The notes under the pieces were generated by a model. That model ran no database searches. It was not told the origin of the DNA and was given only the letters and a program-made list of their open reading frames with translations. Below, in pieces: positions 1,938-35,918 of a stretch of 50,419 nucleotides of DNA (positions are counted from its first letter, which is position 1; each line of letters opens with the position of its first letter). Position numbers and translations under genes: made by a program. The stretch is from a virus: IMG/VR virus record IMGVR_UViG_3300045199_000074, one strand, 5' to 3'.

Positions 1938-2867
1938 ATGGCCGAAACGAAAAATATTGGAGCAAGCGTATATGATAAACTGAAAGCCCAGGCGAAAGCG
2001 TCTGGACTTGATATGCAGTCGCTTGTTCGGTTGTATGCACAGCAACGCCTGCTTTATAGAATTTCAATTTGTGACGCAGCCTCTAGTTTCTGTCTTAAGG
2101 GCGGGCTTATGTTAGCTGCTTACAATAATGGCGATGTATTGCGCCCCACTGAGGATATAGACTTCAATGGATTTGGTGAAGGCGGAATAGAAGAGATCGA
2201 GAAGACCATAAGACTGGCAATATCTACACCAGTTCCAGATGATGGCGTCACTTTTGACATCGATACGATGAAGACGCTGAAAGATCGTGAGGGGATTATT
2301 CCAGGCGGTAAAGTCGTGCTGACAGGCAAGGTTCATACTGCTCGCATTCAGATACGTGTAGATGTTGGTTTTAGAAACGTCATTACACCTGATGCAATGC
2401 CTATGGAGATACCGACATTATTGCCTGATGTTGTGCCTTGTCCTGTTATTGCTGGCTATCCGCTCGAAACAATCATTTCAGAAAAATTGCATGCTATAGC
2501 GCAATTCGGAAATGATAACACGCGGCATAAGGACTATTATGATATCTGGCGCATACAATCTTTGTATGAGATCGAAGGACGTATTCTTTCTCGGGCGATA
2601 ACAAATACGTTTGAAAACCAAGGGCGATCTATCGATCCTGGTATGCCTGGCTTATCGGATGATTTTGGTGTTGAAAACGAACGTGCATGGCGTGCATTCC
2701 TGCGAAAGACTAATCTTAAAGATGACGTGTCTCTCGTCAACGTTATCGCAGAAATGCGTGAGTTTTTAGTCCCAGCAATGTCCGAAGACATCGCTGTAGA
2801 CGCAAAATGGGTGCCAAACGAAGGTTGGGATGGCTTAGGCCCCAACCACCATTTTACTTTTAGGTAG
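1938..2867 (+). CDS. abiEii: Type IV TA toxin, AbiEii/AbiGii nucleotidyltransferase
   Basis: FCLKGG, RPTEDIDF, ETIISEKLHA and NTRHKDYYD motifs. Start at ATG 1938 after AGGAG. Confidence 0.9.
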   Translation: MAETKNIGASVYDKLKAQAKASGLDMQSLVRLYAQQRLLYRISICDAASSFCLKGGLMLAAYNNGDVLRPTEDIDFNGFGEGGIEEIEKTIRLAISTPVPDDGVTFDIDTMKTLKDREGIIPGGKVVLTGKVHTARIQIRVDVGFRNVITPDAMPMEIPTLLPDVVPCPVIAGYPLETIISEKLHAIAQFGNDNTRHKDYYDIWRIQSLYEIEGRILSRAITNTFENQGRSIDPGMPGLSDDFGVENERAWRAFLRKTNLKDDVSLVNVIAEMREFLVPAMSEDIAVDAKWVPNEGWDGLGPNHHFTFR

Positions 2868-4022
2868 CATTACAACATTATCTTTGAAGGACTTGTTAAG
2901 GTCATCAGCTTCGTCTGTGGTAAGAGGATGGAATTTTGCGATTTGATTATCGTCAATGCGCCTCTTTACTTCGCTTTCGACAAAAGTCCTTCGTCCTTTT
3001 GCATTAAAGCGGTCATCCATGAATTTTGACGACAGCTTTATCGTGAAGACAATGTCTTCCTTCTTCTTTCCAGAATAGATTTCTTTCTTTTCGATGCTGT
3101 CGATGATGCTATCAATCTCGCTTAGCTCACAACCTATTTTCTGCAACGAATCCAAGGCTTTTTCAACCTCTGTCAAAGAGGCTCTCCAGCGTTTGCGAAT
3201 GTGTCCGAAGGATCTAGCGATTTCACCAGCGGAAAGTTCGATTGTGTGGCTCTCGTCCGTTGTGTCGGCTAGCATCAAAGAAATGTATTTGAATATCCAA
3301 CGAGCGAGTGAACCTTTTACCTGCATCATCCAGTCGTAGTTAATCTGCTCGAATGCCAGCGACTTGATTGCTTGTACGAGAAGCGGATTAAGTTGTACCG
3401 ATGCGGTGCTTTCTGGGTCCGTGACATCAGAAAACTTCAAAACTGGATAAGCCGCTGCCGCAAGTATGGGCTTGGGCTTCCGACTGCCTTCTTCAACGAT
3501 TTTTGTGATCTCGATGTTGCTCTTATTCAGGATAATGAGCGCTTCCTTGATCTCTTGTTTGTTAAATGTATGGCCGTGTCGCTTAAGCTCACGATGAATG
3601 GCATAGATCGAAAACGGAATTTCAATCTGGTCCTGATGGACTTTCATGCAATCTGCGGCCATTCTCCGGATAACGTCTTCAACGAGCTGTTCGCGCTCAC
3701 CAGGTAGCTCGTCACGTTCACTGCCATCGGCTTGGATTACACGCGCAGGGCTAACTGTTACGCGATAAGGTTCACCATTGAATGTGAAGTCCTTCTTAAT
3801 GGCAACTAAGTACGCGGTATCATCTGGACGCTCGACACGGCTTACAAAGCGCGGAGCCAGATCATAAAGTGCGGTGCAATTGGTTTGGTTCTGTTCGAGC
3901 AGAGAGAACAGTGACGTCTGGAGATATTCATTCATTTCGCGTTTATCTCTCTTTGCTTTAGAAGCAGAAAGAATTTTGACGTTACTTTTGAGCGCCAACT
4001 CATTCGCAAATTGATTTCCCAT
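2835..4022 (-). CDS. repA: Plasmid replication initiator RepA, IncA/C-RepA-like family
   Basis: Motifs match the IncA/C RepA pattern as I recall it: NCTALYDLAPRF, GEREQLVEDVIRRMA, FSIYAIHRELKRHGHTFNKQEIKEAL, VQLNPLL..I..LAFEQINY, SLARWIFK. An iteron array is adjacent. Confidence 0.8.
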   Translation of the reverse strand: MGNQFANELALKSNVKILSASKAKRDKREMNEYLQTSLFSLLEQNQTNCTALYDLAPRFVSRVERPDDTAYLVAIKKDFTFNGEPYRVTVSPARVIQADGSERDELPGEREQLVEDVIRRMAADCMKVHQDQIEIPFSIYAIHRELKRHGHTFNKQEIKEALIILNKSNIEITKIVEEGSRKPKPILAAAAYPVLKFSDVTDPESTASVQLNPLLVQAIKSLAFEQINYDWMMQVKGSLARWIFKYISLMLADTTDESHTIELSAGEIARSFGHIRKRWRASLTEVEKALDSLQKIGCELSEIDSIIDSIEKKEIYSGKKKEDIVFTIKLSSKFMDDRFNAKGRRTFVESEVKRRIDDNQIAKFHPLTTDEADDLNKSFKDNVVMLPKSKMVVGA

Positions 4023-4088: not shown

Positions 4089-4931
4089 GCGCTCTTTATA
4101 CCTACCTATGCGCCTCTTAAACCTACCTACTAGGACATACGAAATACGTTCATATACATCGAAGCGCCTCTTAAACCTACCTCGTTTACAGAAACTTCGA
4201 TTTGAAATTGTTAACCCGATTCTTCTCGAATCCGAAATCTAGAAAGGGCTTGTTGGTCGTATTGCACAGGTAATCGGCCTTCTGCCCCTTATACCTACCT
4301 ATAATCGACCCTAAGAAGTGCCAAGTGCTCCTTAAACCTCCCTATCTGGAATGCTTTTAGTGACACTCCAGATCGTAATCCGAATCATCTGCCTCTTACA
4401 CCTTCCCATTTTTGCTGGATTTCACTCTCTTTTCGCTAAGTGCTCCTTAAACCTACCTATTTGGTCCCCGATCACCGTGTTTCATTATGTCATTCGATAT
4501 GGTTGAGTTGTTTTATAATCCGAGTTGATGGTGATTTTGGCTTCTGAACTGGTTCCCGCCTCTAATACCTCCCCACTCCGCTTTGCATCTTATGGGGATC
4601 GACATTAAGTGCCTGCAATCCCTGCCCATCAAATGGACCGTTATACTCTCAATGAGGCGAAGTGCCTCTTATTCCACCTGGATATGTCCTGACATGCTTC
4701 TAAAACCTACCCTCCCAGGTCCTTTTCAGGCAGCAGTCGAGGTTACCTGCTTCTTTGACCGTCCTAACATGCGGGCAACATGTTCGTTAGCCTATGCGCT
4801 TCTTAAACCTACCTAAGTAATTGGATTCATGAGGCATCGAAAAAGCTTTGTGCCTCTTAAACCTACCTGCGACCCATCAAAAAAATGCATCCTGCACGTT
4901 AAACCTACCCGTGTGCTCGCAATTCCACCCG
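4089..4931 (+). repeat. Iteron array / replication origin: about 15 direct 19-bp repeats, consensus GYGCCTCTTAAACCTACCT
   Basis: Copies start at 4089, 4110, 4164, 4282, 4325, 4389, 4440, 4556, 4609 (degenerate), 4662, 4694, 4796, 4850, 4892 and 4913 (degenerate). All have the same orientation and lie upstream of repA. Confidence 0.88.
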
Positions 4932-5014
4932 ATGACTCTTGCGATAAGAATCGGGTAACCATCTTGGCCAATTCTGTAACGACTCATAAGGAATAGCTGA
5001 GATGCAAATTCGCT

Positions 5015-5087
5015 AAAAAAAGAAGCCCGATGTGTTGGAGCACATCAGGCTTCTTCTAATCGGGTTGGGTTTTGACCACCACTTGCA
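5015..5087 (-). ncRNA. Candidate counter-transcribed RNA (ctRNA) antisense to the leader of the 5218 gene
   Basis: Minus-strand promoter TTGCTC(5122-5117)-N17-TAAATT(5099-5094). A 14-bp terminator stem at 5021-5054 is followed by a U-run on the minus strand, and its single C-A mismatch becomes G-U only on that strand. Confidence 0.55.
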
Positions 5088-5217
5088 GGTCGAAATTTAT
5101 CCCACTGATCATTGTAGAGCAAGCACTTTCGGTCTTTCCGAGAGCATATTTTTTTGTGCCTTGAGGCCTGTTGCTTGTAATGAACGGAGCGCTTTTGCGT
5201 CTCTGGAAGGTGGAGCT

Positions 5218-6357
5218 ATGTCTGTAACCTTACCATTGGAAGTAGAGCCTTACATCATTAAAGGTTCGCCTGCAGATAGTTTGCGTGCGGTTACCGCAGC
5301 CGCAGAACGTGGCGAGTTCGGATTTGAGATCGTTGCAAAACTGGCATCCGTAATCGCTCGTGGCGTTGAACCTCGTTTCGCTAAAACGAAGCCTATTCCT
5401 CTCTATGTCCTCGAATATCTTCGTCAACATCAAGATAAAATGCCTCCGACGCAAACAATCTGGGTTGGTGTACGTGATGGTTTGTGGTCAGAAGATGTTG
5501 CAATTGCTTTTTGTGAAAACCAGGCAGTTTTGAGCGAAACTAAAAGGAAGCCTGTTCCGCGTGGCGTGTATCTTACGAGAAACCGTCGCAAGAACCGCAT
5601 ATTACCAAAAGTTGATGGACGATTTGTTCCAAAAATGTCTCTTGAAGCTCTTTTGGAAGGGCGTGTACGCGATGGCGCAAAAACTTGTCTCGCGTTACTG
5701 CTTTCATTAGCTGGCAAGTCCAACGTTTTGATTACGTGGACTTCAGCGATAGCCACACAGCTTGGCAGATGTGCACGGACAATACGAAATTATTTCATAG
5801 AACTTGAAGATTCTGGATTGATCCAACGCAAGCCTGGGAAAGAACCTAATACGGTAGAGATCACATTCTCTCCTGCATGTCGGCCGGAACCTTATCAAGA
5901 ACCCTTAGACATTAAAGCCTTCAAACTCGCGAGAAGGACGTCGAACACTGTTCTTCGGCATTTGGCTGATACATTGACTTTAATGTCTTGGAAGGAACAT
6001 GAGGAAGAACTATGCCCATATGGGGGGCGGAAAGAAATTTCCGCCTTTAACTCAGAATCTTATCTGAATCGGAAAACTGACACAGCTTCAGTTACTCGTA
6101 GTGGCGTAACAACCCATTCTACTAATAGCACTACACGTCCAAAATCCTTCTTCAGGAAACTTAGGCAAACTGTAATTAGGCCTAAGTCGCAAAAAAAGAA
6201 TGAAGGATCTATGGTTGTGGCAACGAACCATATCAGTTCGCATTCTGAAGTATGCGAGCAGTTTGAAGACAATTTTGGACCACTTAGGGAAGCGGTACCG
6301 ATTAGGCTTTTGAATGACACGGTCTCAAATCAGGAACCATCACGACAAGCTTATTGA
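5218..6357 (+). CDS. Winged helix-turn-helix protein, possible second replication initiator or regulator
   Basis: GAKTCLALLLSLA...TSAIATQLGRCARTIRNYFIELEDSGLI is an HTH_36/replication-protein-like wHTH. Start at ATG 5218 after GGTGGAG. The C-terminus is low-complexity. Confidence 0.6.
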   Translation: MSVTLPLEVEPYIIKGSPADSLRAVTAAAERGEFGFEIVAKLASVIARGVEPRFAKTKPIPLYVLEYLRQHQDKMPPTQTIWVGVRDGLWSEDVAIAFCENQAVLSETKRKPVPRGVYLTRNRRKNRILPKVDGRFVPKMSLEALLEGRVRDGAKTCLALLLSLAGKSNVLITWTSAIATQLGRCARTIRNYFIELEDSGLIQRKPGKEPNTVEITFSPACRPEPYQEPLDIKAFKLARRTSNTVLRHLADTLTLMSWKEHEEELCPYGGRKEISAFNSESYLNRKTDTASVTRSGVTTHSTNSTTRPKSFFRKLRQTVIRPKSQKKNEGSMVVATNHISSHSEVCEQFEDNFGPLREAVPIRLLNDTVSNQEPSRQAY

Positions 6358-7608: not shown

Positions 7609-8940
7609 GTGGAAATCGTATTTGAAATACCGGAGAATAAGATTGTTGGCGTACAATCTCGGGTAAATAAAGCGGCTCAAAGAGCTAGGAAAAGTGGTTT
7701 ACCTGTTCCATCGATGAGTATCGTTGAAAAAATAGAACGGGAACATTATGTTCATGATGCGTTAGCACGATTGAACGGTAATCCTTCTTCAACCAGACGC
7801 GTCGTGTCACGTATTGCTGTCCTACAAATAGCAAATTTCTCACCAAGTATTGGAGACTTTTCATTTGTAGGTTCGAGATACTATAAACAAAAGAAAGATG
7901 GGCAATCAGTAACTTCAAATTTCGGATGTGTTCCTGCCGAAATAGAATGCAGAGACAAGCTTTGCTGTGATCATTGTGGATATAGTCGTAATCGTTCTAT
8001 ATCCTGGGTTCTGAAAAACAACAAAGATGAGAAATTTTCTGAAGTCGGGTCTAGCTGCCTAGAAGCCTTTACTGGATACAGATTGGGCAACGCATTTCAT
8101 GAAGGGTTTCAGGAAGTTGGAAAAATCCTTCATGCGATCAAGCAACTTGCTGATGAAAATCCTGAAAATGATCCAATGGCCTTCGATGAAGATATACGTC
8201 TTGTTCTGGCTGTAGCTATCCGTCATGTCAGCGATCATGGCTTTATCAGCTCACACCAGGCTAAATCTGAAATGGTAGATGCATCGTGGCGCGATGTTAT
8301 GAGTGATTTGTTAAAGTATCGTCGAAACGATCTTGCTGATGATGAGATATTGGTCACTGAAGCAGATTTTCTAGCCGCTGATGATTTGGTGAATTATTTC
8401 TCAAACAATGCTTTTAATGATTTTAGTCGCAACGTTGCGGAAACCACTATGAAAAAATATGCAGCAATGCACGACGTTGCGCTGTTAACGGCTGCTGCTA
8501 ATTCATATGTTGAGAAACTTGCGCGTGATCAAGCTGCATCAAATGTTCGTTCGCTCGTTGATCGCTCTGTTCCAGTGGGGAATATTGGCGACCGATTTGA
8601 ATTTGTGGGCAAGGTTTTCAGTGTAAAAGAGTTCGTCGGAAATTATGGGCCTGTGAGTTACATTACCTTGATAGACACAAACAACAACCTTATGAGTTGG
8701 AAGGCAAGCGGTGGCTCAAAGCTTGATGAAGGTGATGCTTATATCCTTCGAGGCACCGTTAAACAGCATCGGCTGTGTGAACGTGGATATTTTAAAGGAA
8801 TTGCTGAAACTGTCGTCACACGCGTTGCTGTGGAAAAAAAGCTCGGGCCAGCTTCATTTGTTCCATCAAACGATGTGTCAACTTTATCGGCAGATGACGA
8901 AGAGGCATTATCAAGCCTGCTTGGGACAATGAATTTTTGA
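7609..8940 (+). CDS. Hypothetical protein with a Cys-rich (Zn-binding) motif and a C-terminal OB-fold-like domain
   Basis: CDHC...RNR...VGSSC motif. C-terminal VGNIGDRFEF...YGP...LRGTVKQH beta-barrel pattern. GTG start with AGGAG RBS. Confidence 0.65.
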   Translation: MEIVFEIPENKIVGVQSRVNKAAQRARKSGLPVPSMSIVEKIEREHYVHDALARLNGNPSSTRRVVSRIAVLQIANFSPSIGDFSFVGSRYYKQKKDGQSVTSNFGCVPAEIECRDKLCCDHCGYSRNRSISWVLKNNKDEKFSEVGSSCLEAFTGYRLGNAFHEGFQEVGKILHAIKQLADENPENDPMAFDEDIRLVLAVAIRHVSDHGFISSHQAKSEMVDASWRDVMSDLLKYRRNDLADDEILVTEADFLAADDLVNYFSNNAFNDFSRNVAETTMKKYAAMHDVALLTAAANSYVEKLARDQAASNVRSLVDRSVPVGNIGDRFEFVGKVFSVKEFVGNYGPVSYITLIDTNNNLMSWKASGGSKLDEGDAYILRGTVKQHRLCERGYFKGIAETVVTRVAVEKKLGPASFVPSNDVSTLSADDEEALSSLLGTMNF

Positions 8941-8977
8941 AAATGCATTTGATCCTTGCAAGTTAAGGAATGATTTT

Positions 8978-9604
8978 ATGATTAGACCCGCCTCTTGGTG
9001 GAAGGCAAAATTGGAGACAACGATGGCAGTAGTTAGTGCGAAAGCATTTTTTGCATATCAGAGGGATATTAACTCCCTTATGCAACAGCGTTATGGTGTT
9101 ACATATTCCGAGGTAAGAGCTGACCTGCATGATGACAATCAGCATATCAAGTCGTCCTTTGATAATGGTGTTTCTGCGGTCGATATTGCTCAGGACATCG
9201 GATATCAATCCGGCTTCAAGTCTGTAGATGAAAAAGGGGTGGAATACGCAGCCGAATACAACCGCAGGAAAGCCGCGCTTCTCCAGTTTGCGTCTGAAGA
9301 GAACGATTTTCTAAGAGGTAATGAAGGCACTCTATTCATGCCATATGAGGGCGGAGTTGTTACTTTAACACCTGTTCACAAAAGTGACAGCAATCTATGG
9401 GCTTTCCGCGCAGAAATAAGGGATGGTGCTGTTTTAAATCCATCAATGCTTGAAATATCTAACGAAGGTATAGTCCGTGATAGTTTTGAAGGATGGGATA
9501 TCGAAGTTGTAAACGATTGGGTTCAAAGCCATGTTGTCCCATTAACATATTCATCGTCCCTAAACGAAGATAAGAATGAGATTTCTTCACCAGGGTTCTA
9601 TTGA
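8978..9604 (+). CDS. Hypothetical protein
   Basis: 208-aa ORF downstream of the 7609 gene. The start could be ATG 8978 or a later ATG after GGAG. Confidence 0.65.
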   Translation: MIRPASWWKAKLETTMAVVSAKAFFAYQRDINSLMQQRYGVTYSEVRADLHDDNQHIKSSFDNGVSAVDIAQDIGYQSGFKSVDEKGVEYAAEYNRRKAALLQFASEENDFLRGNEGTLFMPYEGGVVTLTPVHKSDSNLWAFRAEIRDGAVLNPSMLEISNEGIVRDSFEGWDIEVVNDWVQSHVVPLTYSSSLNEDKNEISSPGFY

Positions 9605-10347
9605 TAACTAATACCTGCTGATCGTAATACTGTCTCAATGTCACGGCCGTCTGTAATTCTTACTATTACGGATGGCCTATTTGTATCTGAGTTACCAACG
9701 ATTTCCACACCAGGAATACTTTGCAATTTTAAGATGGACTCTGGACTAAAGTATTCAAGTCTGTACTCTGTCCATCCTGCATTCTGCCTTTGTCCTGTTA
9801 TAGCAATTGTATCCTCTTGGACTGTTCCCTCAGATGGGTCGGAATAGCCATTGAAAATATCATCAATCATGCCAAGGGCAGCTTCTCTGTTTGCTTCATG
9901 AGAATTGATTGATCTCCAAGCAGCTCCCTCGCCTGATACCCATCCAGCGACAGCGAGTTGTTCGGATTTATCTTTTATCGCAATCGCAATCGCTGCGGCG
10001 CGGTACTTAGCAGCAAGTTTATTCAGGACATTTACATCCATATTTTCAAGATGATAACCTTGGACCAACCTCCTGTCATCAGCATCACCAGTTATGGCTA
10101 CCGTCTTCATTCCAGAGTTTGTTTGACGAGGGACAATCCATTGCTGAAGCCATTCATCCTCCTTATTCCATAGAACAATCTCTCCGTTTTCAGATCGCCT
10201 TGCAGGAATAACCAGAACCCAGTTTTTTTTGGAGAGAGAAATGTAAGAAGCTTCTTCTGGCCATGATCCTTCAGGAGATGCACAGGCCATAGTTGTGAAA
10301 ATGAAAAATTCAAACAATGCGATTAAACTACGCATTTTCTGCTCCAA
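9598..10347 (-). CDS. Secreted hypothetical protein, weakly DUF2066-like
   Basis: N-terminal hydrophobic signal and a WVLVIP...LW..ED.W...W...GDADD pattern. Confidence 0.55.
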   Translation of the reverse strand: MEQKMRSLIALFEFFIFTTMACASPEGSWPEEASYISLSKKNWVLVIPARRSENGEIVLWNKEDEWLQQWIVPRQTNSGMKTVAITGDADDRRLVQGYHLENMDVNVLNKLAAKYRAAAIAIAIKDKSEQLAVAGWVSGEGAAWRSINSHEANREAALGMIDDIFNGYSDPSEGTVQEDTIAITGQRQNAGWTEYRLEYFSPESILKLQSIPGVEIVGNSDTNRPSVIVRITDGRDIETVLRSAGISYQ

Positions 10348-10423
10348 TTAAAATAATATGCTTCTCAAAAGGTGGTCCTTGTTAAATAATGAACGATATT
10401 ATTTAATTCGCAAAGGCTTGAAT

Positions 10424-10999
10424 ATGGGTATTAGTAGACATTTCCCCCTTATTTCGAGAAGAGGACTTATCGTAGGTTTGGGTGCGTCTTTATTGGCTAA
10501 GCAGGCTTATGCCAGAATTGGTTGGTCTGCGTCTCCTGAATTGATTAAAGCATTTCGGTCAATGCCTCATATTAAAGATGGAACCTCCAGTAAGTTGGTA
10601 TATGTCTTAACAACTCCTTGGTGTCCGAGATCTCCAGAACTTTATGAGAGTAGCAGGCGTATTATTAACAGCGGGCAAATATCGTTTGCATGGATACCCT
10701 ATTCAGGAGGCCAGCCAGAAGGTAGTAATGCTGTAGAAAGATTATTTTCAGGAAACGACGTCAATCATATAAATAGTATTTTCGAACCAATTAAACGAGG
10801 GACGGTTAAACAGGAAACACCCATGTCTGACAGACAGGATTATCTTGTTTCTACAACATTGGAATCGTTGATTATTAGAGATACCGGTATGGGGATTAAA
10901 ACGCCCACTTTGGTATATGCAATTGGTTCACAGGTAAGAATTATTCCTGGATCTATTGATGAAAAAGAATTACAGGTTGTGGCTGATTTCGCAACGTAA
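10424..10999 (+). CDS. Tat-exported thioredoxin-fold (DsbG/TrbB-like) protein with a CxxS site
   Basis: Twin-arginine signal ISRRGLIVGLGASLLAKQAYA, active-site region VYVLTTPWCPRS, and cis-Pro motif KTPTL. Confidence 0.65.
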   Translation: MGISRHFPLISRRGLIVGLGASLLAKQAYARIGWSASPELIKAFRSMPHIKDGTSSKLVYVLTTPWCPRSPELYESSRRIINSGQISFAWIPYSGGQPEGSNAVERLFSGNDVNHINSIFEPIKRGTVKQETPMSDRQDYLVSTTLESLIIRDTGMGIKTPTLVYAIGSQVRIIPGSIDEKELQVVADFAT

Positions 11000-11001
11000 T
11001 A

Positions 11002-11055
11002 ATTGCGAGCGTCACTTTAAATAAAAATATATTAAATATAACCGACACTCGCAAT
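11002..11055. terminator. Inverted repeat between convergent genes
   Basis: ATTGCGAGCGTC ... GACACTCGCAAT (11/12 match) around an AT-rich loop. Confidence 0.45.
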
Positions 11056-11068
11056 AAAACTAAAAATA

Positions 11069-11278
11069 TCAGTCTAGACCAAAACACTGTGCCTGCATTG
11101 ATCCAATTGCTCGCCCCGGAGGACATTGGGTAACTTTACCTTCGTTCGCTAGATAGCTTGCAATCAATTCTGCATCGGTTGGTTGCCCTGGTTTCGGTTT
11201 ATGCTTCTTTCTACGTCTACGAATAAGCATCATTCCATTTGGATTCGAAAATCGAGAATTAAGTCCGTGCATGCGCAC
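11069..11278 (-). CDS. Small basic hypothetical protein
   Basis: RRRRKKHKPK tract and a LIASYLANEGKVTQCPPG motif of the kind seen in small phage/plasmid proteins. GGAG RBS. Confidence 0.55.
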   Translation of the reverse strand: MRMHGLNSRFSNPNGMMLIRRRRKKHKPKPGQPTDAELIASYLANEGKVTQCPPGRAIGSMQAQCFGLD

Positions 11279-11537
11279 TCCAGTACGGTTAGATGTTGAT
11301 CTTAGTGGTTTAGGCGCGAATTAAGCGCATGTAGGCTTTAATATCTCTTTTAATTATGTAAATCAAGGATAATTCCTTTTAATGTCGTAATAATTATAAA
11401 TAAATAAAATCCAATTTTTTCCTTAAATAAATGCTTGAATGATTCCAATTGATTAGTCAGAATCCATGGAAAGGCTATCGCCGGTGGGCAGGATCGATTT
11501 ATTATTGTTTCCACAGGCTATTTTAAAAGGGGATTTC

Positions 11538-14162
11538 ATGTCCCAAAAACAAATGCGAGGCCCTCAGGGTAACCAAGAGATAAGAGCTGTCGATCTTGCT
11601 AAAGATTCTCGCCCTCTTAGTAAAAAAATCCATGATTGGCTAAAAGGGCCGCAAAATTTAGCTACCTTTTTGCTATTTTTTGCAGCACTCGCCTTTGTAA
11701 TTCCTGCTGTGGCTGATTTTTGTCTTTTATTTTCATGCTTATTTACATGGTTTGGATTAAAGCAAAGAGAAGTTTCTCCATTAAAATTGCCGATCCAATC
11801 CAAAATGATGGACGTAAATGAACGTCATCCAGCGACGTCGTTGCCTTCAATCGCTCAGGGTATTTTCTTCCTGGGCAATGAGTTGAAGACAGCAAAAGAG
11901 GTGTGGCTAACTAACTCTGATTGCCGTCAGCATTTTCTGGTTCTTGGCACGACTGGTGCGGGTAAGACGGAAGCTTTGCTGGGGTTTGCGGCCAATGCGG
12001 TTGCATGGGGTTCTGGCTTCTTGTTTTGCGATGGTAAGGGTGACGTCGCCCTTTTCTCGAAAGTTTACGCCCTGTGCCGCCGATTTGGCCGAGAAGACGA
12101 CCTTCTGGTGTTAAACTACATGACAGGTAACCAGGATATTGGCGGCGGCGGCGGTAAGCTGATGTCGAATACTCTTAATCCATTTTCGACAGGTTCATCT
12201 GACACTTTGACACAGATGGTTGTTGGTCTCATGGATGATGCCGGTGGTGACGGTGCTATGTGGAAAGGCCGTGCAGCTGCTATGTTTACGGGTGTTATGC
12301 GCGCTCTGACTTGGCTTCGTGACAATAACTACATAGACCTCAACGTTTCTGAAATTCGTGATCATTTGCAGCTTAAAAGGATCATCGATCTGGCGGATGA
12401 GAAAAAATATGAGGAAATGCCACAGTCGATACGAAAAAGTATTCGCTCTTACATGACATCACTTCCAGGCTTTCAGGAAGATAAAGGGTACAAGCAATCA
12501 CAAACCACCCTTGATCAGCACGGTTACCTGGAAATGCAGTTTACTAAGATTCTTGGTTCTCTAGCTGACGTTTATGGCCATATCTTTCACACGCCATACG
12601 GTGAAATCGATATGGCTGATGTCGTATTGAACCGTAGAATTCTTGTTATCATGCTTCCTGCTCTTGAAAAGTCGCGAGATGAAATTGCTAACCTCGGGAA
12701 GATTGTTGTCGCCACCCTTAAGGGCATGATGGGTGGTACTCTTGGTTCAGAAATTGAAGGCACTTGGGATTCTGTTGTTATTAATCGACCAACCAATTCT
12801 CCAAGCCCATTTATCGTGGTTCTTGATGAGGTCGGTTATTACATGGTTGACGGCATGGATCTTATGGCTGCTCAGGCTCGTTCTCTTGGCTTCTCGCTTA
12901 TTTTTGCGGGGCAGGACATCAACGCGATGAAAAGCCTGAACGAAAAGGTTTTCGGTTCTGTTCGAGGTAATACGAATACTAAAATCATTATGAGAACGGA
13001 AGATGAAGAAACGGCGGAGCTTGGTGTAAAGGCTGCAGGTAAAATGTGGCTAACCGTAGCCAAGAATTTTGATGGAAAAGTTAGTGAGGCTGGCGGTCGA
13101 TCATATCGAGACGATATGAAAGCTGTTGCAGAAGAAAGGGATCGAATTAACCCTCTTGACCTGAAAGATCAGGATGAGGGTGAAATGCACATCATTCATA
13201 AAGGTTGGCTCGTTCGTGCTAAATCTTTTTATGCCAATCCAGAAGGAGCGGTCAATAAAAACAACCTTAAATTAAGAGCGAATTATTTCATCACTGTGGC
13301 TAAGCCTGATCGTGAAGAAATTGAAAAGCAGCAGAAAATGCCTGAGATCATCGCAAAATTGGTCGACCCAGAATTTGCTAAACAGATTAAAGTCTTAGCT
13401 GCGAATGCAATGCAGAATGTTTCTTCAGATACAGATATCGGAGTTATTGCTCAAACTCTTAAAGAGATTGACGCTTCTAAGCGCCCTCCTTCTAGTAGAA
13501 CTGAGACTACATGTATTGCTTATGCCAAGCTTAATTATGAAAATGTAAGAACATCTCAAGCCTACGCAAGAGAAATCGGCGTAGCAACTGGCGGGCGCAA
13601 ACCAGTCGGAATGACGACACCTCAGGATTTGGAAAATATCCCATTCGAAGATAATTCTAAAGCTAATGGTTCAGCTGTTTCAGGTGCCTCGCGTCGACCG
13701 AGACAAGAGATATCTTCTGAATCATTTATGCCTGATACGGAAGAACAGGGCAGACCTTCGTTTGCTTCTAAGCCCCGTCCAATCAGCAGTAGTATGAAAA
13801 AGGATGTTCCGCACGGCACCGAGGTTGGTGGTGATATTCAGAGAATGACAGACAGGATGTCATCAAATCAGAATGTGTTGAGAACACTTGCGGCTCTAAA
13901 TTTTGATGAGAAAGTTGAAACAAGAGAGAGTGTAGATAGCTATATTGAAGAAGCCTTATCTTCAGATGATGGCGATGACATTGATGACGATTTTGATTTC
14001 ACAAAGAGCGATATAGCAGCATCAGCAGTTGCATCCGCAACCGCAACCGCAGTACATGCGTTTGACGATGAAGATCAAGGCGATAGCGAAGGTTCATGGG
14101 ACCCTAAAGAAGGCCCCGTGGAAGATTTTCTAACTTCACTTTTACAGGACGAGGACGATTGA
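11538..14162 (+). CDS. icmO: Type IVB secretion coupling protein, DotL/IcmO/TrbC family
   Basis: N-terminal TM helices, FFLGNE, HFLVLGTTGAGKTE (Walker A), DGKGD, SNTLNPF, MWKGRA, VVLDEVGYY, AAQARSLGF and GNTNTKI. Start at ATG 11538 after AAGGGG. Confidence 0.9.
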   Translation: MSQKQMRGPQGNQEIRAVDLAKDSRPLSKKIHDWLKGPQNLATFLLFFAALAFVIPAVADFCLLFSCLFTWFGLKQREVSPLKLPIQSKMMDVNERHPATSLPSIAQGIFFLGNELKTAKEVWLTNSDCRQHFLVLGTTGAGKTEALLGFAANAVAWGSGFLFCDGKGDVALFSKVYALCRRFGREDDLLVLNYMTGNQDIGGGGGKLMSNTLNPFSTGSSDTLTQMVVGLMDDAGGDGAMWKGRAAAMFTGVMRALTWLRDNNYIDLNVSEIRDHLQLKRIIDLADEKKYEEMPQSIRKSIRSYMTSLPGFQEDKGYKQSQTTLDQHGYLEMQFTKILGSLADVYGHIFHTPYGEIDMADVVLNRRILVIMLPALEKSRDEIANLGKIVVATLKGMMGGTLGSEIEGTWDSVVINRPTNSPSPFIVVLDEVGYYMVDGMDLMAAQARSLGFSLIFAGQDINAMKSLNEKVFGSVRGNTNTKIIMRTEDEETAELGVKAAGKMWLTVAKNFDGKVSEAGGRSYRDDMKAVAEERDRINPLDLKDQDEGEMHIIHKGWLVRAKSFYANPEGAVNKNNLKLRANYFITVAKPDREEIEKQQKMPEIIAKLVDPEFAKQIKVLAANAMQNVSSDTDIGVIAQTLKEIDASKRPPSSRTETTCIAYAKLNYENVRTSQAYAREIGVATGGRKPVGMTTPQDLENIPFEDNSKANGSAVSGASRRPRQEISSESFMPDTEEQGRPSFASKPRPISSSMKKDVPHGTEVGGDIQRMTDRMSSNQNVLRTLAALNFDEKVETRESVDSYIEEALSSDDGDDIDDDFDFTKSDIAASAVASATATAVHAFDDEDQGDSEGSWDPKEGPVEDFLTSLLQDEDD

Positions 14163-20469: not shown

Positions 20470-23400
20470 CTAGAATGGTATCATTTCATCTTCTGTATCA
20501 AATGCCATTATTTGGAATTCTCTTAGACCGTCATCGGTTGCCGCTGCGGCGTTTTCATAGCTCTCATTGGTGTTTACGCCTGTCTCTGCATGAACAATAG
20601 CTGCCTCCGCTCCCAGGTCATTTTTCTCAGGCTTATCCTTGCCGAGAGAAGTCCATAACTTTGATATTGCCAATCGAGTTTCAGCTTCGATCAGGCTGAT
20701 AATTCCTTCCTGAGGCCCTTTCTTGCTATTCTCATATGTTATGCCGCTTGGAACCGACACAGGAACCTGTCGATTACGAAGATTATTGGCGCGCAGGTGC
20801 GCTATGGCTTCTGCAGGCGTGGTCATCAGGATTGCGATGGCGCTTTCAATGGCGTTGCTTTGCTCAATTTTACGACGGTTATCCAGGGTACCGAGTGCGT
20901 CTTCGATTTTATCAACTTTACGACCCATAGCGAGCGTTTGTGGCAATGGCGTCGACAATTGTTCTAGAGAAACAAGGGAACTCTCCATGTGCTTCTCCAA
21001 AGCGTTACGTAACGCTTCCTCTCGTTCCTTTAGGTCAGCCCTAACGAATGAATGTCCGCTCTCACCAGACTTTGTTTTCCAGCGATATGCAACGATACCC
21101 CAAGCAATGCGTTGATCGATATCTCCTGTTTTGTCATTCATTCCCATCTTCTTCATGAATTCGCAGACACGCTCACGTGTAGCGAACAGATCATCACAAA
21201 TGTCTGTGGCGATGCGGGAATCCAATATGCCGTGTGATCGTCTCATGGCTTCCCATACAGAACCCGTATTCGCTTTTATTAGGTCATCCATATTGATCAA
21301 ATCATCAACGATGACTTCTTCAGGGATTACTGACGATAGGCTGAACCATATTGGAGCCATTCCTTCACGATACACTGGGCGAAGGCGACCAAGAAACTGA
21401 AGAAGTTCTTCTTCTCGATACTGACGCTGGATCATCCGGCCCCATTTTCCAGGGAACATTGGTACAGGCATGTTGATATCGTGTCCTGAACGCATTTTAA
21501 CCCGCTGTGTTCCTGTAGGTATGCGAAGAGGTTGATTATCGCGTCCTAGTCCAGTTCCAAGACTGTCGAATGGCTTTTCTGGTTCGTCATCATCATAGGT
21601 CAACGATGCAACCAGACCATCAAGAGTACGAACTGGAAGCTCCATTCTGCCAATTGAGATTGCTGCTGAATGGTATTTTGCAAAGTCTAGCCCGCGCATA
21701 GCGCCAAAATGGCACCAATCAACATTATGTGGTCCTTCCCAAGCCGTATTAACCGCTTTTCGAACGAGTATTGATCCGCCAGCGACCGTTCTGCTCCAGC
21801 CGTATAGCGCTGATATTGAACTAATTGCTCTACGAATGTTGGTTAGAATTCTAGCGGATGACTGTTTCTCTTGAGCAGACGCACTGGGTGCAGCAATTAC
21901 GGAAGAATTCGAATAAGTGCGATCAGCGATTGCAACTGTTCTCACATTAAGTGCGGCTGGAATGTCGTGAACCTGAACATCCTTTCCAGACCAGATTTTA
22001 CTGATCATTGCAGGAGCTGCAGAAGCATCAAGGAGCAACATCGGGCGGTTTACCCAATTTGGAGTGTCACGCCATGAAATGCGAATTTTTGGATGTGGTT
22101 CACCGTTGGAACGTACATCTTCCACATATTGAATCCGGTAATCTTTTTCGCCCTTGGTTTTTCGTTTGAAATTTGGGCTAAGACGCTCATTCTGATATTC
22201 TTCGAGGCGCATGAGATAGCGTTCCTCGACGATTTTCCAAAATCTATGTTCTTCACGAACCTGCACGCCTGTTGGCTGGGAGCAAAGCTCTCTCAACTGC
22301 TCCATGTCAATTTCTGGAGTGATATCTCCATCGCGCTGAAGGGAAGCACCGCATGTCCGCAGTGCAGCTTTGATCCACGTGTAGACCCGCTCTGTCTCAA
22401 TTCGTCTTGCTTCTGGCTTCATCTTTTCAGGGAGATTTTTGATAATCTCCAGTTGCACCTTCAATAGTTCCTCTGCGGGGTCCTTGTTGGTCAGTAATGC
22501 ACGGTTTACGACGCCTGCGGCCTTTAAACGTAATGGGTTGAACGTTGTTGGGTCTTCCCCTGCTTCTTTCTCTTTCTTCGTCAATTTTGGAGGCTTACGA
22601 GGAGACGTGAAGATGTCGAGATCAAACTCGGTGGTATGTAGAAATAGATGATGGATACGTTCGTCGGCAACAACGGCTCGAACGTGTTTCAATTCATCTG
22701 GAATGTTTAGAGCTAGAAAAGCGTGCGGCAGGAAGACGACATGCGAATTTTGAATTTGCTCTTTCTGCGTGATAGCTGGACACCCCTCGTAGTATGGGCA
22801 AAATTTGGTGTCCATGATTGTTTTGCCGTTTTCATCCTTATCCTTGGTTGGAATTTCTGCCTTGCATAGACGTGACGTCCCCATGCCAGCGGCCATCGCG
22901 ATTTCCATTTTCTCCTTCATCTCGCAACCAGCACGAAGCTTGCCTTGGTAAAGCATGGTCGTGAGTCCGGCATTCTTTGCATCGCGCCGAAGTTCTTTAA
23001 GTTTGCCTTCGAGAGCATCAATGTGAATGAGACCTAGTGCTTCTGCCTGAGCACGAAGGTCTTCATCATTCAGGTCTGGATCAAGGTTAAGAACTTCAGA
23101 TCTGCTCTTCAATTCTTCAATATTGTCATATGTAGGCAAAAGAAATAGAACAGGGCATCGACCTTGATGCTCAATTTCTCCGTCTGATCCGTAGATTGTA
23201 TAATCATCCTTGGTGCGCTTATCTTCTGCTACGAATGATATACCGCGAGAAGTTTTACCTGCTCCCGTAGGAGCCTTCAGGATATGGATACGCGTATCAC
23301 GTCGATCCATATCGTAAACTTCATCCCAGAAGCTGTTGAATGCTTTTAAAAGGCCGTCTTGAACGGTTTTTGCAATACGAGTTCGGTCTTCTTCGATTTT

Positions 23401-24777
23401 GCGACTTTCGAAGGCTTCCTCATTATATTCGAGGACTTCGATTTTCATTGGACGTCTTTGGTTAGGAGTGTTCGGATTGAAATTGAACGCAGTAGGATCC
23501 ACGAATGGTGGAAGGAAATCCAATGAATCGCCGTCAGGATTTCTTGGTTGTGCTGGAACGTAATCGCGAGCGGTGGCTGCGATGATATAATCGCCCTGGC
23601 TGTCACGAACTGGTACGAATGGCTGAATCTGGCCTGCCTTCATTTTATCTGCAGTACGATTAACCTTGGATTTGGCTTCACGGATAAGGTTGTTGCCTTT
23701 CCATCGACCGGAACATTCCGCAGTTTCAATGAACTGTTGGACGACAATCTTGACGAGTGTCTCCCTGCCCTGTGGTGTCGTGGACGTTCCGGGGTTAGCC
23801 GTAACAATGCGGAAGGCTAGACGAGTTAGATAGGCTTCACGACCATCAACGACTTTGCCTTCTTTGTCTTCTGTCCAGTCCTTTGCGCCAGCGGAAGAAC
23901 GGATTTTAGGGACGTTGATCTGTGCGTTTTCATCCCATTCCCATGTCGCTATTGTTCCATCAAATGAGGCTGACTTGGAAAACTGCCGAAGGCTATCAAC
24001 AGCGTCAAAAAAGTCGTTGATCTGTTGAGATGTGACCAAAGGAGCGTCTTCAGGACCAAAGAATTGTGGGTTAGCGTCAAGCCATTGGAAATAGCGACCT
24101 GTCTTGTGGTGCTTACCGAAGAAGGTCATTGGCTTGCCGTGAGAGATAACTTCGAGACCTTGATCGACGCTGTCTGGATTCTCCGGCGTTTCGAAAGGTA
24201 CAAACTTCGGCGATCTATTTGGAACTTCGTCTTCCGGTGCATGACGATAAACGAGTGCAATCTTTGGCCAATTACCAATACGTCGGAATGGTGTGTAGCC
24301 GAACATTTTATCGGCTAGTTCCTGAACCATTCGGCTTAGCTCTGGCTCTACGATATCGACGTCGAGTACCAGTGTATCGCCACTGCCTGAACCAAGGACA
24401 ACAGCAACGTTCAGGGCAGCGCACTGTGCCGTCCATTTATCAAGCGCTGCATCTGTTGGTAACTGCGTAGCAAGCTTATGGTCTTCTGACCATTTAATCA
24501 TTCGACCGTCAACTGTTCCAGGTCTACGATTGCCGTCAATTTCCTGCGGGAACACGGACCAGCCAGTTTTGACCATGTCTCGTGCAACCGCACCAAAGAT
24601 TGATTCATTCGGGCGATACATATGTTCGACCGCTTTTTCAAATTCTTTGTCAGCATCGGTGGCAATGGTTGCGATTAGTTCTTCTGGAAACTCAGTGTCA
24701 TCAAACATGGGTATAATCTCGTCGAGATTATTATCATCGAACGCATCATCAAAACCCATGTTGAAATTATCGGCCAT
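20470..24777 (-). CDS. Bifunctional DNA primase/polymerase (Prim-Pol) fused to an SF2-like helicase
   Basis: AEP Prim-Pol motifs GWSVFP, NVAVVLG..SG.TLVLDVD. Helicase motifs KAPTGAGKT, VVADER, LLDASA and QFLGRLR. Four Cys between Walker A and Walker B. Confidence 0.8.
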   Translation of the reverse strand: MADNFNMGFDDAFDDNNLDEIIPMFDDTEFPEELIATIATDADKEFEKAVEHMYRPNESIFGAVARDMVKTGWSVFPQEIDGNRRPGTVDGRMIKWSEDHKLATQLPTDAALDKWTAQCAALNVAVVLGSGSGDTLVLDVDIVEPELSRMVQELADKMFGYTPFRRIGNWPKIALVYRHAPEDEVPNRSPKFVPFETPENPDSVDQGLEVISHGKPMTFFGKHHKTGRYFQWLDANPQFFGPEDAPLVTSQQINDFFDAVDSLRQFSKSASFDGTIATWEWDENAQINVPKIRSSAGAKDWTEDKEGKVVDGREAYLTRLAFRIVTANPGTSTTPQGRETLVKIVVQQFIETAECSGRWKGNNLIREAKSKVNRTADKMKAGQIQPFVPVRDSQGDYIIAATARDYVPAQPRNPDGDSLDFLPPFVDPTAFNFNPNTPNQRRPMKIEVLEYNEEAFESRKIEEDRTRIAKTVQDGLLKAFNSFWDEVYDMDRRDTRIHILKAPTGAGKTSRGISFVAEDKRTKDDYTIYGSDGEIEHQGRCPVLFLLPTYDNIEELKSRSEVLNLDPDLNDEDLRAQAEALGLIHIDALEGKLKELRRDAKNAGLTTMLYQGKLRAGCEMKEKMEIAMAAGMGTSRLCKAEIPTKDKDENGKTIMDTKFCPYYEGCPAITQKEQIQNSHVVFLPHAFLALNIPDELKHVRAVVADERIHHLFLHTTEFDLDIFTSPRKPPKLTKKEKEAGEDPTTFNPLRLKAAGVVNRALLTNKDPAEELLKVQLEIIKNLPEKMKPEARRIETERVYTWIKAALRTCGASLQRDGDITPEIDMEQLRELCSQPTGVQVREEHRFWKIVEERYLMRLEEYQNERLSPNFKRKTKGEKDYRIQYVEDVRSNGEPHPKIRISWRDTPNWVNRPMLLLDASAAPAMISKIWSGKDVQVHDIPAALNVRTVAIADRTYSNSSVIAAPSASAQEKQSSARILTNIRRAISSISALYGWSRTVAGGSILVRKAVNTAWEGPHNVDWCHFGAMRGLDFAKYHSAAISIGRMELPVRTLDGLVASLTYDDDEPEKPFDSLGTGLGRDNQPLRIPTGTQRVKMRSGHDINMPVPMFPGKWGRMIQRQYREEELLQFLGRLRPVYREGMAPIWFSLSSVIPEEVIVDDLINMDDLIKANTGSVWEAMRRSHGILDSRIATDICDDLFATRERVCEFMKKMGMNDKTGDIDQRIAWGIVAYRWKTKSGESGHSFVRADLKEREEALRNALEKHMESSLVSLEQLSTPLPQTLAMGRKVDKIEDALGTLDNRRKIEQSNAIESAIAILMTTPAEAIAHLRANNLRNRQVPVSVPSGITYENSKKGPQEGIISLIEAETRLAISKLWTSLGKDKPEKNDLGAEAAIVHAETGVNTNESYENAAAATDDGLREFQIMAFDTEDEMIPF

Positions 24778-34035: not shown

Positions 34036-34608
34036 ATGGATGATTTGATAATAGCAAAGCAATATACCGAGTCATTTGCTCGACGAGACAAGTTGGAGAG
34101 CCAGCAAAGGGATTATGTGCTTCGGAATATTGACGATTATAATCGATTTTACGATCTTGCAACCAAACTTTCAGCAGAAAAAGCCAGGGAGCTTTTGCCT
34201 AAGGAAGCTGCAATCGTTGATGAGATTGAATTTGGAACAGAAGCTGTTCTTAATGCTCGCAATACCGCTTATGAGAGCTTGGGATTATGCATGATAGATA
34301 AGATGAAACAGGTTAGTATGCAACCTGTTGACCGTTCACGTGGAATCGCGCAGTTGCTTATTGATGCACTCCAGGAAGTCAATCAGTTTCGATTGGAGCA
34401 CTTGGACCACAAAGATAGTAAGTTCGATATGGTGATTGAACATGGAGCTGGCTTTCAAGCATCTGAGAAGGATCGTTTGCTCAATCGCTTGATCGCAACA
34501 TGGGCTAAAGCATCGCGCGTTCCATTGAAAACCTTAAAAGCCGACGTTCAAAACTGGATCAAGTTTAATTCCAACCTACCGGAGATAACCAATCTCACAA
34601 ATCGCTGA
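34036..34608 (+). CDS. Hypothetical protein
   Basis: 190-aa ORF starting 5 nt after the previous stop. Confidence 0.65.
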   Translation: MDDLIIAKQYTESFARRDKLESQQRDYVLRNIDDYNRFYDLATKLSAEKARELLPKEAAIVDEIEFGTEAVLNARNTAYESLGLCMIDKMKQVSMQPVDRSRGIAQLLIDALQEVNQFRLEHLDHKDSKFDMVIEHGAGFQASEKDRLLNRLIATWAKASRVPLKTLKADVQNWIKFNSNLPEITNLTNR

Positions 34609-35176
34609 CGTCAATCTCCGCACCTGGTAACGTAACGCCGATGTCTTTGTCGGCATTTAGAATTCCTGCGTCTCTAAGTTCTTTTATATCTGGCAAATCA
34701 TCAAAGCTTTTTAAATCGAACTGTTGCAGGAATTTGTTGGTCGCGACAAACGTCAATGGGTTTCCCGGCGTTTGTCTTCGCGGACCTGGCCTGATCCATT
34801 CCGACCAAAGAAGCAAATCCAGTATAGCCCTAGCAACAGTCACTCCTCGGATACGTTCAATCTCCGGTCGTGTTACTGGTTGAAAATATGCAATGGTGAC
34901 CAGTGTCTCTAAGGATGCGTTGGTTAGTTTGATGGGTTTTCGCAAAAATTTGCGGCACAAATCTGAGCATTCCGGTTTTGATCTGATTGTCCAGCCACCT
35001 GCGACCTCCACGATCTGCAAAGAGCGGGTTTCGTATTCGTCTGCCAGCTTTATTAAGCATTCCTCGATATTAAGTCCGAGTGGAAGCCGTTGACGAAGCT
35101 CGTCCTTGGAAACAGGGGTTCTTGATGAGAATAAGATGGTTTCGATCAGATGATGATCCTGAATGCTTTCACTCAT
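34595..35176 (-). CDS. scpB: Segregation and condensation protein B
   Basis: IETILF, EVAGGW, LETLVTIAYFQPVTRPEIERIRGV, PGNP..F..T..FL..F.L....DLP. Confidence 0.93.
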   Translation of the reverse strand: MSESIQDHHLIETILFSSRTPVSKDELRQRLPLGLNIEECLIKLADEYETRSLQIVEVAGGWTIRSKPECSDLCRKFLRKPIKLTNASLETLVTIAYFQPVTRPEIERIRGVTVARAILDLLLWSEWIRPGPRRQTPGNPLTFVATNKFLQQFDLKSFDDLPDIKELRDAGILNADKDIGVTLPGAEIDVSDL

Positions 35177-35918
35177 GCCCTTTCCTCTTCACATAGATTG
35201 GTTCCATTAAGTCCGACTGTTTGATTTCTGCTAATCCATTTCGTGCCAGTTCAAGCGTGCCAATCAAACTTGTTGCGATATTGGATCGGAGACGAAGTCC
35301 AGTGGATTTCGGTATCAAATTGACCAGATTTGTCCATTCCATAGGCATATCAGATTTAAGTCTGGATATTGCTTCGTCTACTGATGCGAGATCGAAAGGT
35401 TTCAGAATACGCGGTTCCGGCGTAAAATACGGTTCTTTCGGTTTGGGATAGGCAGCAAGAAAATCGTGGAATGATATATTTATTCGATTGCTTTGAACAC
35501 TTGCACCACCAGCACCGCCAGGTCCAAACCAATCTTTGTTAAGGATTACCTGCTTTTGTATTTTTTCTGCCGCTGTTTTTACAGCATCTAATCTCTTTAA
35601 ATGAAAAGCGAGTGCGTCTTCAGAAAGTTCTTCCTTGCCGTCTGACTTTGGTTGTTTTAATAAAATACGAGATTTCAGATATGTCATCCATGCGGCCATC
35701 ACGAGCCAGTCTGCAGCAAGCTCCATTCTAAGAGCCATAGCTCTGCCAATAACCGCTTCAAACTGCGAAACAAGATCGAGGATATCAATCTGAATGAGGT
35801 CTATTTTCTGCGAACGTGCGAGTTCTAACATTGCTTCAATTGGTCCTTCCCATGCAGAGAATTTGACAATGAAGCGTTGATCTTCCTCATCCGAGTATTT
35901 GTCTTCGAGAAATTCCAA
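35169..35918 (-). CDS. scpA: Segregation and condensation protein A (kleisin)
   Basis: WEGPIEAMLELARSQKIDL, AADWLVMAAWMTYLKSRILL, and C-terminal LELARNG...KQ....PIYV. Overlaps the scpB start. Confidence 0.9.
   Translation of the reverse strand: MEFLEDKYSDEEDQRFIVKFSAWEGPIEAMLELARSQKIDLIQIDILDLVSQFEAVIGRAMALRMELAADWLVMAAWMTYLKSRILLKQPKSDGKEELSEDALAFHLKRLDAVKTAAEKIQKQVILNKDWFGPGGAGGASVQSNRINISFHDFLAAYPKPKEPYFTPEPRILKPFDLASVDEAISRLKSDMPMEWTNLVNLIPKSTGLRLRSNIATSLIGTLELARNGLAEIKQSDLMEPIYVKRKGHE

Follow-up and report, generated by a model that had tools for sequence, protein, structure and literature searches.

The gene at 5218-6357 on the plus strand of IMG/VR virus record IMGVR_UViG_3300045199_000074, a stretch of 50,419 nucleotides referred to here as the window, likely encodes a plasmid replication initiator from an HTH_36 family that carries no name. 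Together with an internal dyad and a counter-transcribed RNA (ctRNA) of ~73 nt predicted to limit its translation, the gene probably makes up a second, repC-style replicon beside an iteron-RepA replicon. The preliminary description had proposed an undescribed ctRNA-regulated replication gene next to iteron-RepA, and this proposal is now supported by the anatomy of the leader, by synteny, by an intragenic origin-like element and by homologs that occupy the repC position. This reading is based on direct observations, namely conservation, covariation, synteny, freezing of synonymous sites and the placement of homologs. The window as a whole resembles a segment of some large conjugative element from the Alphaproteobacteria, and the sequencing runs containing it carry the label ant metagenome. 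RNA-run contigs X19-21 and X23, identical in sequence to the window, cover origin and gene alike in an even manner.

The predicted initiator is an HTH_36-like winged-helix (wHTH) protein of 379 aa. Its AlphaFold model (mean pLDDT 74.7, pTM 0.43) contains helical N-terminal domains, a winged helix at ~aa 152-217 and a tail disordered after ~aa 270. A protein search with the product returned 47 relatives, and in an alignment of 46 rows Met1 was found nearly invariant, with ATG 5218 as the start codon. GTG 5032, a start that the preliminary description had regarded as fatal to its proposal, was ruled out by this methionine common to 46 proteins, and is further disfavoured in that the reading frame upstream of 5218 is not preserved in relatives. 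Pfam gave weak HTH matches only: PF13730 (HTH_36) was matched by 37 of the 46 relatives at E <= 0.1, the best at 1.6e-6, and the window protein itself fell below the cut-off. RP-C (PF03428) did not match the window protein and was reached by 5/46 relatives at E 0.023 or worse only, and the match of the family profile to six RepC proteins spanned 63 HTH columns only (P 91%). With the PF03428 cut-off not reached and the profile match confined to the HTH, membership in the RepC family was rejected. The protein had no match in NCBIfam; the ESM Atlas returned generic HTH_36 clusters only, and a sequence search of the PDB generic HTH matches only. In PHROGs the best match was a DnaD-like helicase-loader family (E 1.2e-6), and a replication-initiation family was matched at E 2.1e-4; these matches to phage replication-initiator families are weak. 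HTH_36 domains also occur in regulators, which counts against the initiator reading.

At the DNA level, the window was compared with 13 close relatives, and the 14 loci or leaders mentioned below are the window plus these 13; L006 and L007, which proved to be HrcA-like false matches, were left out. The divergent neighbour of the wHTH gene, repA (2835-4022, minus strand), encodes an iteron-type plasmid initiator of 395 aa with tblastn matches in 1284 plasmid records, annotated as "plasmid replication protein" or "RepB family plasmid replication initiator". A divergent RepA was found ~0.7-1.35 kb upstream in 12/12 close relatives with enough DNA, the thirteenth contig ending too soon, and this synteny bears out the back-to-back arrangement of the gene with an iteron-RepA replicon. 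Between the two genes, an array of ~12 direct repeats with the core CTTAAACCTACC occupies 4090-4931 on the plus strand, with a 21-nt unit counted 11 times; a regular-expression search recovered iteron-like repeats in 13 of the 14 loci. The last, degenerate iteron (4914-4931, plus strand) abuts the predicted -35 of a sense promoter at 4932-4961, and a site found with the iteron matrix ends 15-16 nt 5' of GAATC in every one of the 14 loci and scores above every coding-region window.

The predicted sense promoter comprises a GANTC at 4948, a -10-like TAACCA at 4956-4961 and a +1 at ~4968. Its motif, GAATCGG-N1/2-TA, lies 258-324 nt 5' of the start codon in all 14 loci and stands reversed before repA in 8 of them; there are only two copies in the 50-kb window, one at 4942-4961 and its inverted counterpart, also with a GANTC site, at 4209-4228 on the minus strand (inverted repeat I1), where it is the predicted repA promoter motif. 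We infer that the GAATCGG site serves as the sense promoter, that RepA binds at its -35 and that its GANTC is a target of methylation. Counted from the promoter-like motif at 4948-4961, the leader, given as ~200 nt in the preliminary description, is probably ~250 nt long. As a separate observation, the 20-nt GANTC motif common to both divergent promoters suggests shared, possibly methylation-dependent control. Downstream of the promoter, a mini-ORF (5002-5016, plus strand; M-Q-I-R-stop) with an SD-like site stops just 5' of the first leader hairpin. An SD followed by an ORF of 2-8 codons was found in 13/14 loci as compared with 162/2800 background windows, and the peptide sequence is variable. 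The mini-ORF stops about where the upstream gene ends in repABC, and may put a ribosome at the position of the repB end.

The ctRNA very probably exists, judging from comparative sequence. It is predicted to run from ~5087 to 5015 on the minus strand and to end in a 16-17-bp hairpin and a U-run, close to the ~70-nt minus-strand RNA claimed earlier. Its predicted promoter (5094-5122, minus strand) consists of a -35 TTGCTC at 5122-5117 and a -10 TAAATT at 5099-5094 separated by a 17-nt spacer. Minus-strand TTGC-N17/18-TA is kept in 14/14 leaders as compared with 11/277 background TTG sites, a test that was anchored on the invariant TTGC word and hence concerns spacing only; the invariant words keep a fixed distance around a spacer of variable sequence, and the -10 has the form TAnnnT in 12/14 leaders. 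The list of a generic promoter scanner did not include the promoter at 5122-5094. The terminator claimed for the minus strand also held up: hairpin 1 with its U-run (5015-5057) reached -26.1 kcal/mol (z -7.9), its minus-strand form, which carries the U-rich tail, is the more stable one in 11 of the 14 leaders, and two-sided changes occur at 9/12 consensus pairs. The preliminary description had called for a covariance analysis of homologous leaders, and the 14 were all alignable, with compensatory changes in hairpin 1; over the leader structure as a whole, 94% of cells are paired and 0/500 shuffles match, a comparison in which related sequences can beat such shuffles.

A simpler account takes hairpin 1 for a two-way terminator insulating the origin, without any antisense RNA, and the gene product for an ordinary DNA-binding protein. 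It would agree with the T-runs that flank hairpin 1 on both sides in several relatives, and with an Rfam scan of the window (E up to 5) that gave no match, including RF00489 and RF00490, in a search whose positive controls passed gathering at 4/6 repABC loci. Such an account is very improbable, as it leaves unexplained the promoter spacing kept in all 14 leaders, the covariation of a sense helix A:B and the switch that depends on its segment B (both described below), the repABC-type leaders of homologs and the internal dyad.

On the sense strand, a helix is formed between segment A (5059-5080), which lies within the ctRNA target, and segment B (5089-5106), an anti-RBS that overlies the antisense -10. 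The core of this helix is the hairpin at 5070-5095 noted previously, which was found again together with that at 5126-5144. Cognate A:B duplexes averaged -17.3 kcal/mol vs -12.3 for non-cognate ones, with 0/20000 permutations as strong, and covariation persisted with three close duplicates left out (p 5e-5). The helix has no strand preference, the sense strand being more stable in only 5/14 leaders. As the ctRNA -10 lies inside segment B, conservation of B has two possible causes. A further candidate role for segment B, that of a RepA-binding iteron, was rejected upon scoring above background in 3/14 loci only, the window not among them.

The alternative partner of B is segment C (5202-5223), which contains the RBS AAGGTGG (5207-5213) and the start codon. 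B:C duplexes reached -11.1 kcal/mol vs -8.1 +/- 0.6 for shuffled partners, and cognate pairs are barely stronger than non-cognate ones (p 0.044 for 14 loci, 0.17 for 11). When the ctRNA target was held unpaired in transcripts that ended 12 nt inside the gene, the mean number of expected B:C pairs rose from 1.2 to 7.8, and the cost of opening positions -14 to +6 rose by at least 2 kcal/mol in 11/14 leaders vs 6/112 B-shuffled controls. The window's own shift is +0.5 or +2.8 kcal/mol, depending on the fold boundaries; the same calculation gave +4.0 to +6.3 in five of six repABC controls, and at least 2 in 13 of the 14 Aureimonas-type leaders scored (15 given; without a shuffled control). A coarse measure of SD accessibility that included 33 coding bases revealed no change on blocking (0.28 vs 0.26 unpaired). 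Alternative folding of the leader was thus supported as an idea, but with other partners than those proposed: the switch uses 5059-5080, 5089-5106 and the RBS, not 5024-5031 and 5059-5066. The latter two are indeed complementary (8 bp, one G-U), but their pairing has an ensemble probability of ~0 in the window and at most 0.04 expected pairs in relatives, and this helix was rejected.

Between B and the RBS lie two more hairpins. Hairpin 4 (5185-5205), directly 5' of the RBS, appears in the folds of the window and of most relatives, and hairpin 3 (5126-5155 with its U-run) holds the position of the repABC S element. The U-run announced in the preliminary description is present at 5149-5155, but not just before the RBS, being ~55 nt upstream of it with hairpin 4 between. 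Hairpin 3 is the ground for a rival in which the same parts operate and the ctRNA acts by transcription attenuation at 5126-5144 and its U-run, as published for the repABC leaders of p42d and pTi (according to excerpts of PMC3155836 and PMC6090056). Its stem is conserved at the S-element position, with 98.8% of cells paired and a two-sided change at 1/6 pairs only, and when the ctRNA target is blocked, the hairpin becomes much more probable in a truncated transcript in 5/14 leaders (L002, L004, L008, L010 and L011). In the window that probability drops from 0.51 to 0.16; the stems have little stability (-2.7 to -10.1 kcal/mol), most relatives have a T-rich tail that is displaced and interrupted, and a terminator scan gave one match vs 2.7 expected by chance. 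Attenuation at this hairpin, as the earlier proposal had it, is poorly supported and appears unlikely as the main mode of control. In view of this weak stem, the displaced T-tail and the drop in probability seen in the window, the computed switch is taken to favour blocked translation over attenuation, although both may act; pairing of B with the RBS is rather likely to be the main means.

Inside the gene, a predicted origin (6027-6080) was found in 14/14 loci, consisting of the dyad GCGGAAA-N4-TTTCCGC (6027-6044) followed by an AT-rich tract and GANTC sites at 6055 and 6066. The peptide RKEISAFN is encoded here as GCGGAAAG(A/G)A(A/G)TTTCC..TTTAAC in all 14 loci, and a single codon is used at 6 of 7 near-invariant residues at the dyad vs 1 of 71 outside it, counted over 12 loci after removal of two near-duplicates, a codon pattern that marks the conservation of RKEISAFN as a DNA constraint. 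The lowest-GC 50-mer of the gene starts at most 6 nt from the dyad element in 13/14 loci, the exception being the AT-richer window; GANTC stands at +27 from the element in 12/14, and the element occurs in one copy per genome in 3/3 genomes. Dyad, AT-rich tract and GANTC together form a repC-type origin signature at the sequence level, and the RepC origin is described as lying inside repC with a comparable pattern in excerpts of PMC6090056 and PMC3155836. There is thus good reason to regard the wHTH protein as an initiator with an internal origin.

The relation of this protein to RepA was evaluated from the occurrence of both. Three of the close relatives reside on replicons or contigs of 1.2-1.6 Mb, in R. 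leguminosarum (pRlX5), Mesorhizobium sp. SP-1A and Pararhizobium sp. BT-229. RepC was not found on pRlX5 (1.32 Mb, closed), and in the other genomes it sits on contigs different from the one with the wHTH gene. The close family is rare: it was present in one of 401 sampled genomes of the family, namely the centre genome itself, with distant matches in 16 others, and the viral contigs searched held no relative. In the megaplasmid family the RepA-wHTH pairing is fixed and the two promoters look co-wired. Neither protein is an obligate partner of the other, however, because RepA relatives occur on many plasmids without the gene and distant homologs of the wHTH protein occur without the window-type RepA. 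A third candidate initiator of the megaplasmids besides these two is a Rep3-like gene, found far off on the same megaplasmid or contig in 3/3 checked (W01:1285189-1285599, G001:C2:1123778-1124170 and G003:C3:1155706-1156110).

It could also be argued that the wHTH protein assists or regulates the iteron origin under ctRNA control, as a helicase loader, an anti-handcuffing factor or a repressor, and that the dyad is its operator. The adjoining RepA of all 12 informative close-family loci, the common motif of the two promoters with the last iteron abutting the sense one, and the DnaD-like best PHROG match are in line with such a role. This is nevertheless quite unlikely: tblastn matched RepA homologs in 1284 plasmid records and the wHTH protein in 1, so RepA relatives work without it; its distant homologs lack the window-type RepA and occupy the repC position; and the AT dip and GANTC beside the dyad look like an origin. 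Of the two roles, that of an initiator with an origin of its own has better support than that of a helper of RepA.

The distant homologs, found as 21 loci in 16 genomes, are shorter HTH_36 proteins (~230-320 aa). An HHalign profile built from eight of them matched 195 columns of the window family (P 97.6%, E 2.6e-12), including two dyad-coded peptides, and did not match RepC (P 2%). They have their own internal dyad, GTGACA-N4-TGTCA, at the aligned position. Their leaders contain TTGAC-17-TA promoters and RNAs of 55-59 nt, and matched RF00489 below gathering at 11/20 loci scanned. An nhmmer model built from 16 of these leaders reached repABC leaders (best E 8.7e-6), and nhmmer leader models reached the window family at E 7.8 only; a covariance model of the window family found the corresponding leader at rough E-values of 0.0018, 0.023, 0.22 and 0.31 in two distant homologs, one repABC locus and L005. 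The window leader is linked to repABC leaders by architecture, the sequence signal being weak.

Six closed plasmids encode the Aureimonas-type protein by tblastn, none of them from Paracoccus, and the genes on pAU20b, c, e and g are annotated as helix-turn-helix or hypothetical protein. On pAU20b (closed, 436 kb, Aureimonas) the order is repA, repB, leader, HTH gene, so that repA-repB lies directly upstream of this distant homolog, an arrangement that the window gene does not have. Such placement in the repC position is the strongest sign that the family may initiate replication. Searches for four families, RepC, RPA, Rep3 and window-type RepA, found none on pAU20b, c, g and a Jiella plasmid; a different rep gene is present on pAU20e, and pAU20g carries a gene for a primase/polymerase. 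No functional description of the Aureimonas/Jiella-type genes was found in the literature searched, whose scope did not extend to the original AU20 genome paper, in which these genes may already be flagged as candidate rep genes. Several side observations were made among these loci. On the Jiella plasmid NZ_CP114030.1 (L050, 3979-4146), a second copy of the ctRNA-type leader stands in front of a small gene that lies 5' of the HTH_36 gene, and the tandem leaders adjoin a divergent repA-repB pair. L030, L032, L035 and L036 form a third group of homologs, ~230 aa in length, whose leader and internal dyad are related to those of the others yet distinct; this group had no match among closed plasmids; a parA-like gene is divergent near the L036 homolog. 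At L040, Rfam int-alpA RNA was matched above gathering at 993-1058, downstream of the HTH_36 gene.

Compared with known systems, the window follows repABC and solo-repC in the order of its leader (A-run and hairpin, 5' part of the ctRNA, TTG..-17-TA-type antisense promoter, S-like hairpin, RBS), in a sense helix reaching from within the ctRNA target across the -10, in the computed closure of the RBS on ctRNA binding, and in a mid-gene dyad with AT tract and GANTC in the gene of a winged-helix protein. The ctRNA promoter and terminator architecture expected of an initiator leader is likewise found in the window, by comparative analysis. In contrast to repABC, the ctRNA of the window is ~70-75 nt rather than 54-59, the protein matches RepC (PF03428) over the HTH columns only, the leader does not match RF00489 (incA/inc-alpha/RepE) or RF00490 (S element), iterons and a divergent repA initiator rather than repA-repB partition genes lie upstream, and the gene has a predicted promoter and mini-ORF of its own and a fixed partnership with an iteron-RepA origin. 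The module is best described as one that would function as solo-repC replicons do, with an initiator from outside the RepC family. Aureimonas/Jiella-type loci share a homologous protein, a ctRNA-type leader and an intragenic dyad with the window, whereas their leader is much closer to repABC and they are linked to par genes, not to iteron-RepA.

Antisense RNAs also control the initiators of pSK41 (RNAI), pT181 and pIP501 via refolding of the leader; these systems involve other protein families and hosts, and the window has no Rfam match to them. For pSK41 RepA_N, the origin is placed inside the rep gene in excerpts of PMC3155836. HTH_36-domain proteins, as in the window family, are the initiators of the small Paracoccus plasmids pAES1, pAES7, pMARC3 and pMOS2 of the Alphaproteobacteria, and the parts of PMC3832669 consulted describe them with iteron-like repeats and without antisense control; plasmids of the pAES, pMARC and pMOS type had no tblastn match to the window protein or an Aureimonas-type relative. 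The divergent RepA of the window is 28-36% identical to that of Azospirillum and IncA/C-like iteron-RepA replicons, with iterons upstream in both, while a second antisense-controlled gene is neither described for them in the portion of bioRxiv 10.64898/2026.09.14.751567 consulted nor matched by tblastn. In the literature searched, which included parts of PMC10194956, PMC13133039, PMC10645730, PMC6209633 and bioRxiv 2024.09.03.610885, no description of the wHTH family, of a repAB-HTH_36 cassette or of the replication of these megaplasmids was found.

A working model of the second, repC-style replicon may be proposed as follows. Transcription would start near 4968, from the promoter that has the GANTC site and adjoins the last iteron with its -35. 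As long as the mRNA is free of ctRNA, A would pair with B and the RBS stay comparatively open. The ctRNA would cover 5015-5087 and remove A, upon which B, in the computed refolding, pairs with the RBS and start region, enclosing hairpins 3 and 4 in a multi-loop, and synthesis of the initiator would fall. Copy number would be reflected in the level of ctRNA, which would also determine incompatibility. The protein, in analogy to RepC, would bind the dyad at 6027-6044 and melt the adjoining AT-rich tract, probably in cis. A broader scenario is offered tentatively and with some doubt: a wHTH initiator family missed by replicon typing may have displaced RepC and kept the whole circuit of ctRNA switch, internal origin and GANTC, to be found as repAB-X operons in the Aureimonas type, and in the rhizobial megaplasmids of 1.2-1.6 Mb as a replicon wired to an iteron replicon, where RepA at the last iteron would set transcription of the second initiator and unite two copy-control systems in one hierarchy.

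The antisense switch between repB and repC and the internal origin have so far been treated as properties of RepC, and the module suggests that this circuit is portable to another protein family, including into the repC slot of a repAB operon. It is a candidate replicon and typing marker for large alphaproteobacterial plasmids without recognised replication genes; one replicon of 1.4 Mb without identifiable replication genes is mentioned in the available part of a survey of 256 Rhizobium replicons (PMC12691615). The module would furthermore offer a new incompatibility group for vectors, and the locus is a direct test case for the coexistence of iteron and antisense control.

Elsewhere in the window, an AbiEi/AbiEii type IV toxin-antitoxin pair (1161-2867) is convergent on repA, and was found in 10/11 relatives with enough DNA. 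A downstream block conserved in relatives (7609-14162) contains unknown genes for 443 and 208 aa, DUF2066, a gene whose 213-aa product has a CxxS-like motif, and one for a type IV coupling protein. The gene at 20470-24777 encodes 1435 aa with a weak DEAD-helicase match only (E 0.035); its N-terminus resembles a primase-polymerase by eye, and the product may be a plasmid replication enzyme. The gene pair at 34595-35918 we take, by eye, to resemble scpA/scpB, the partners of SMC.
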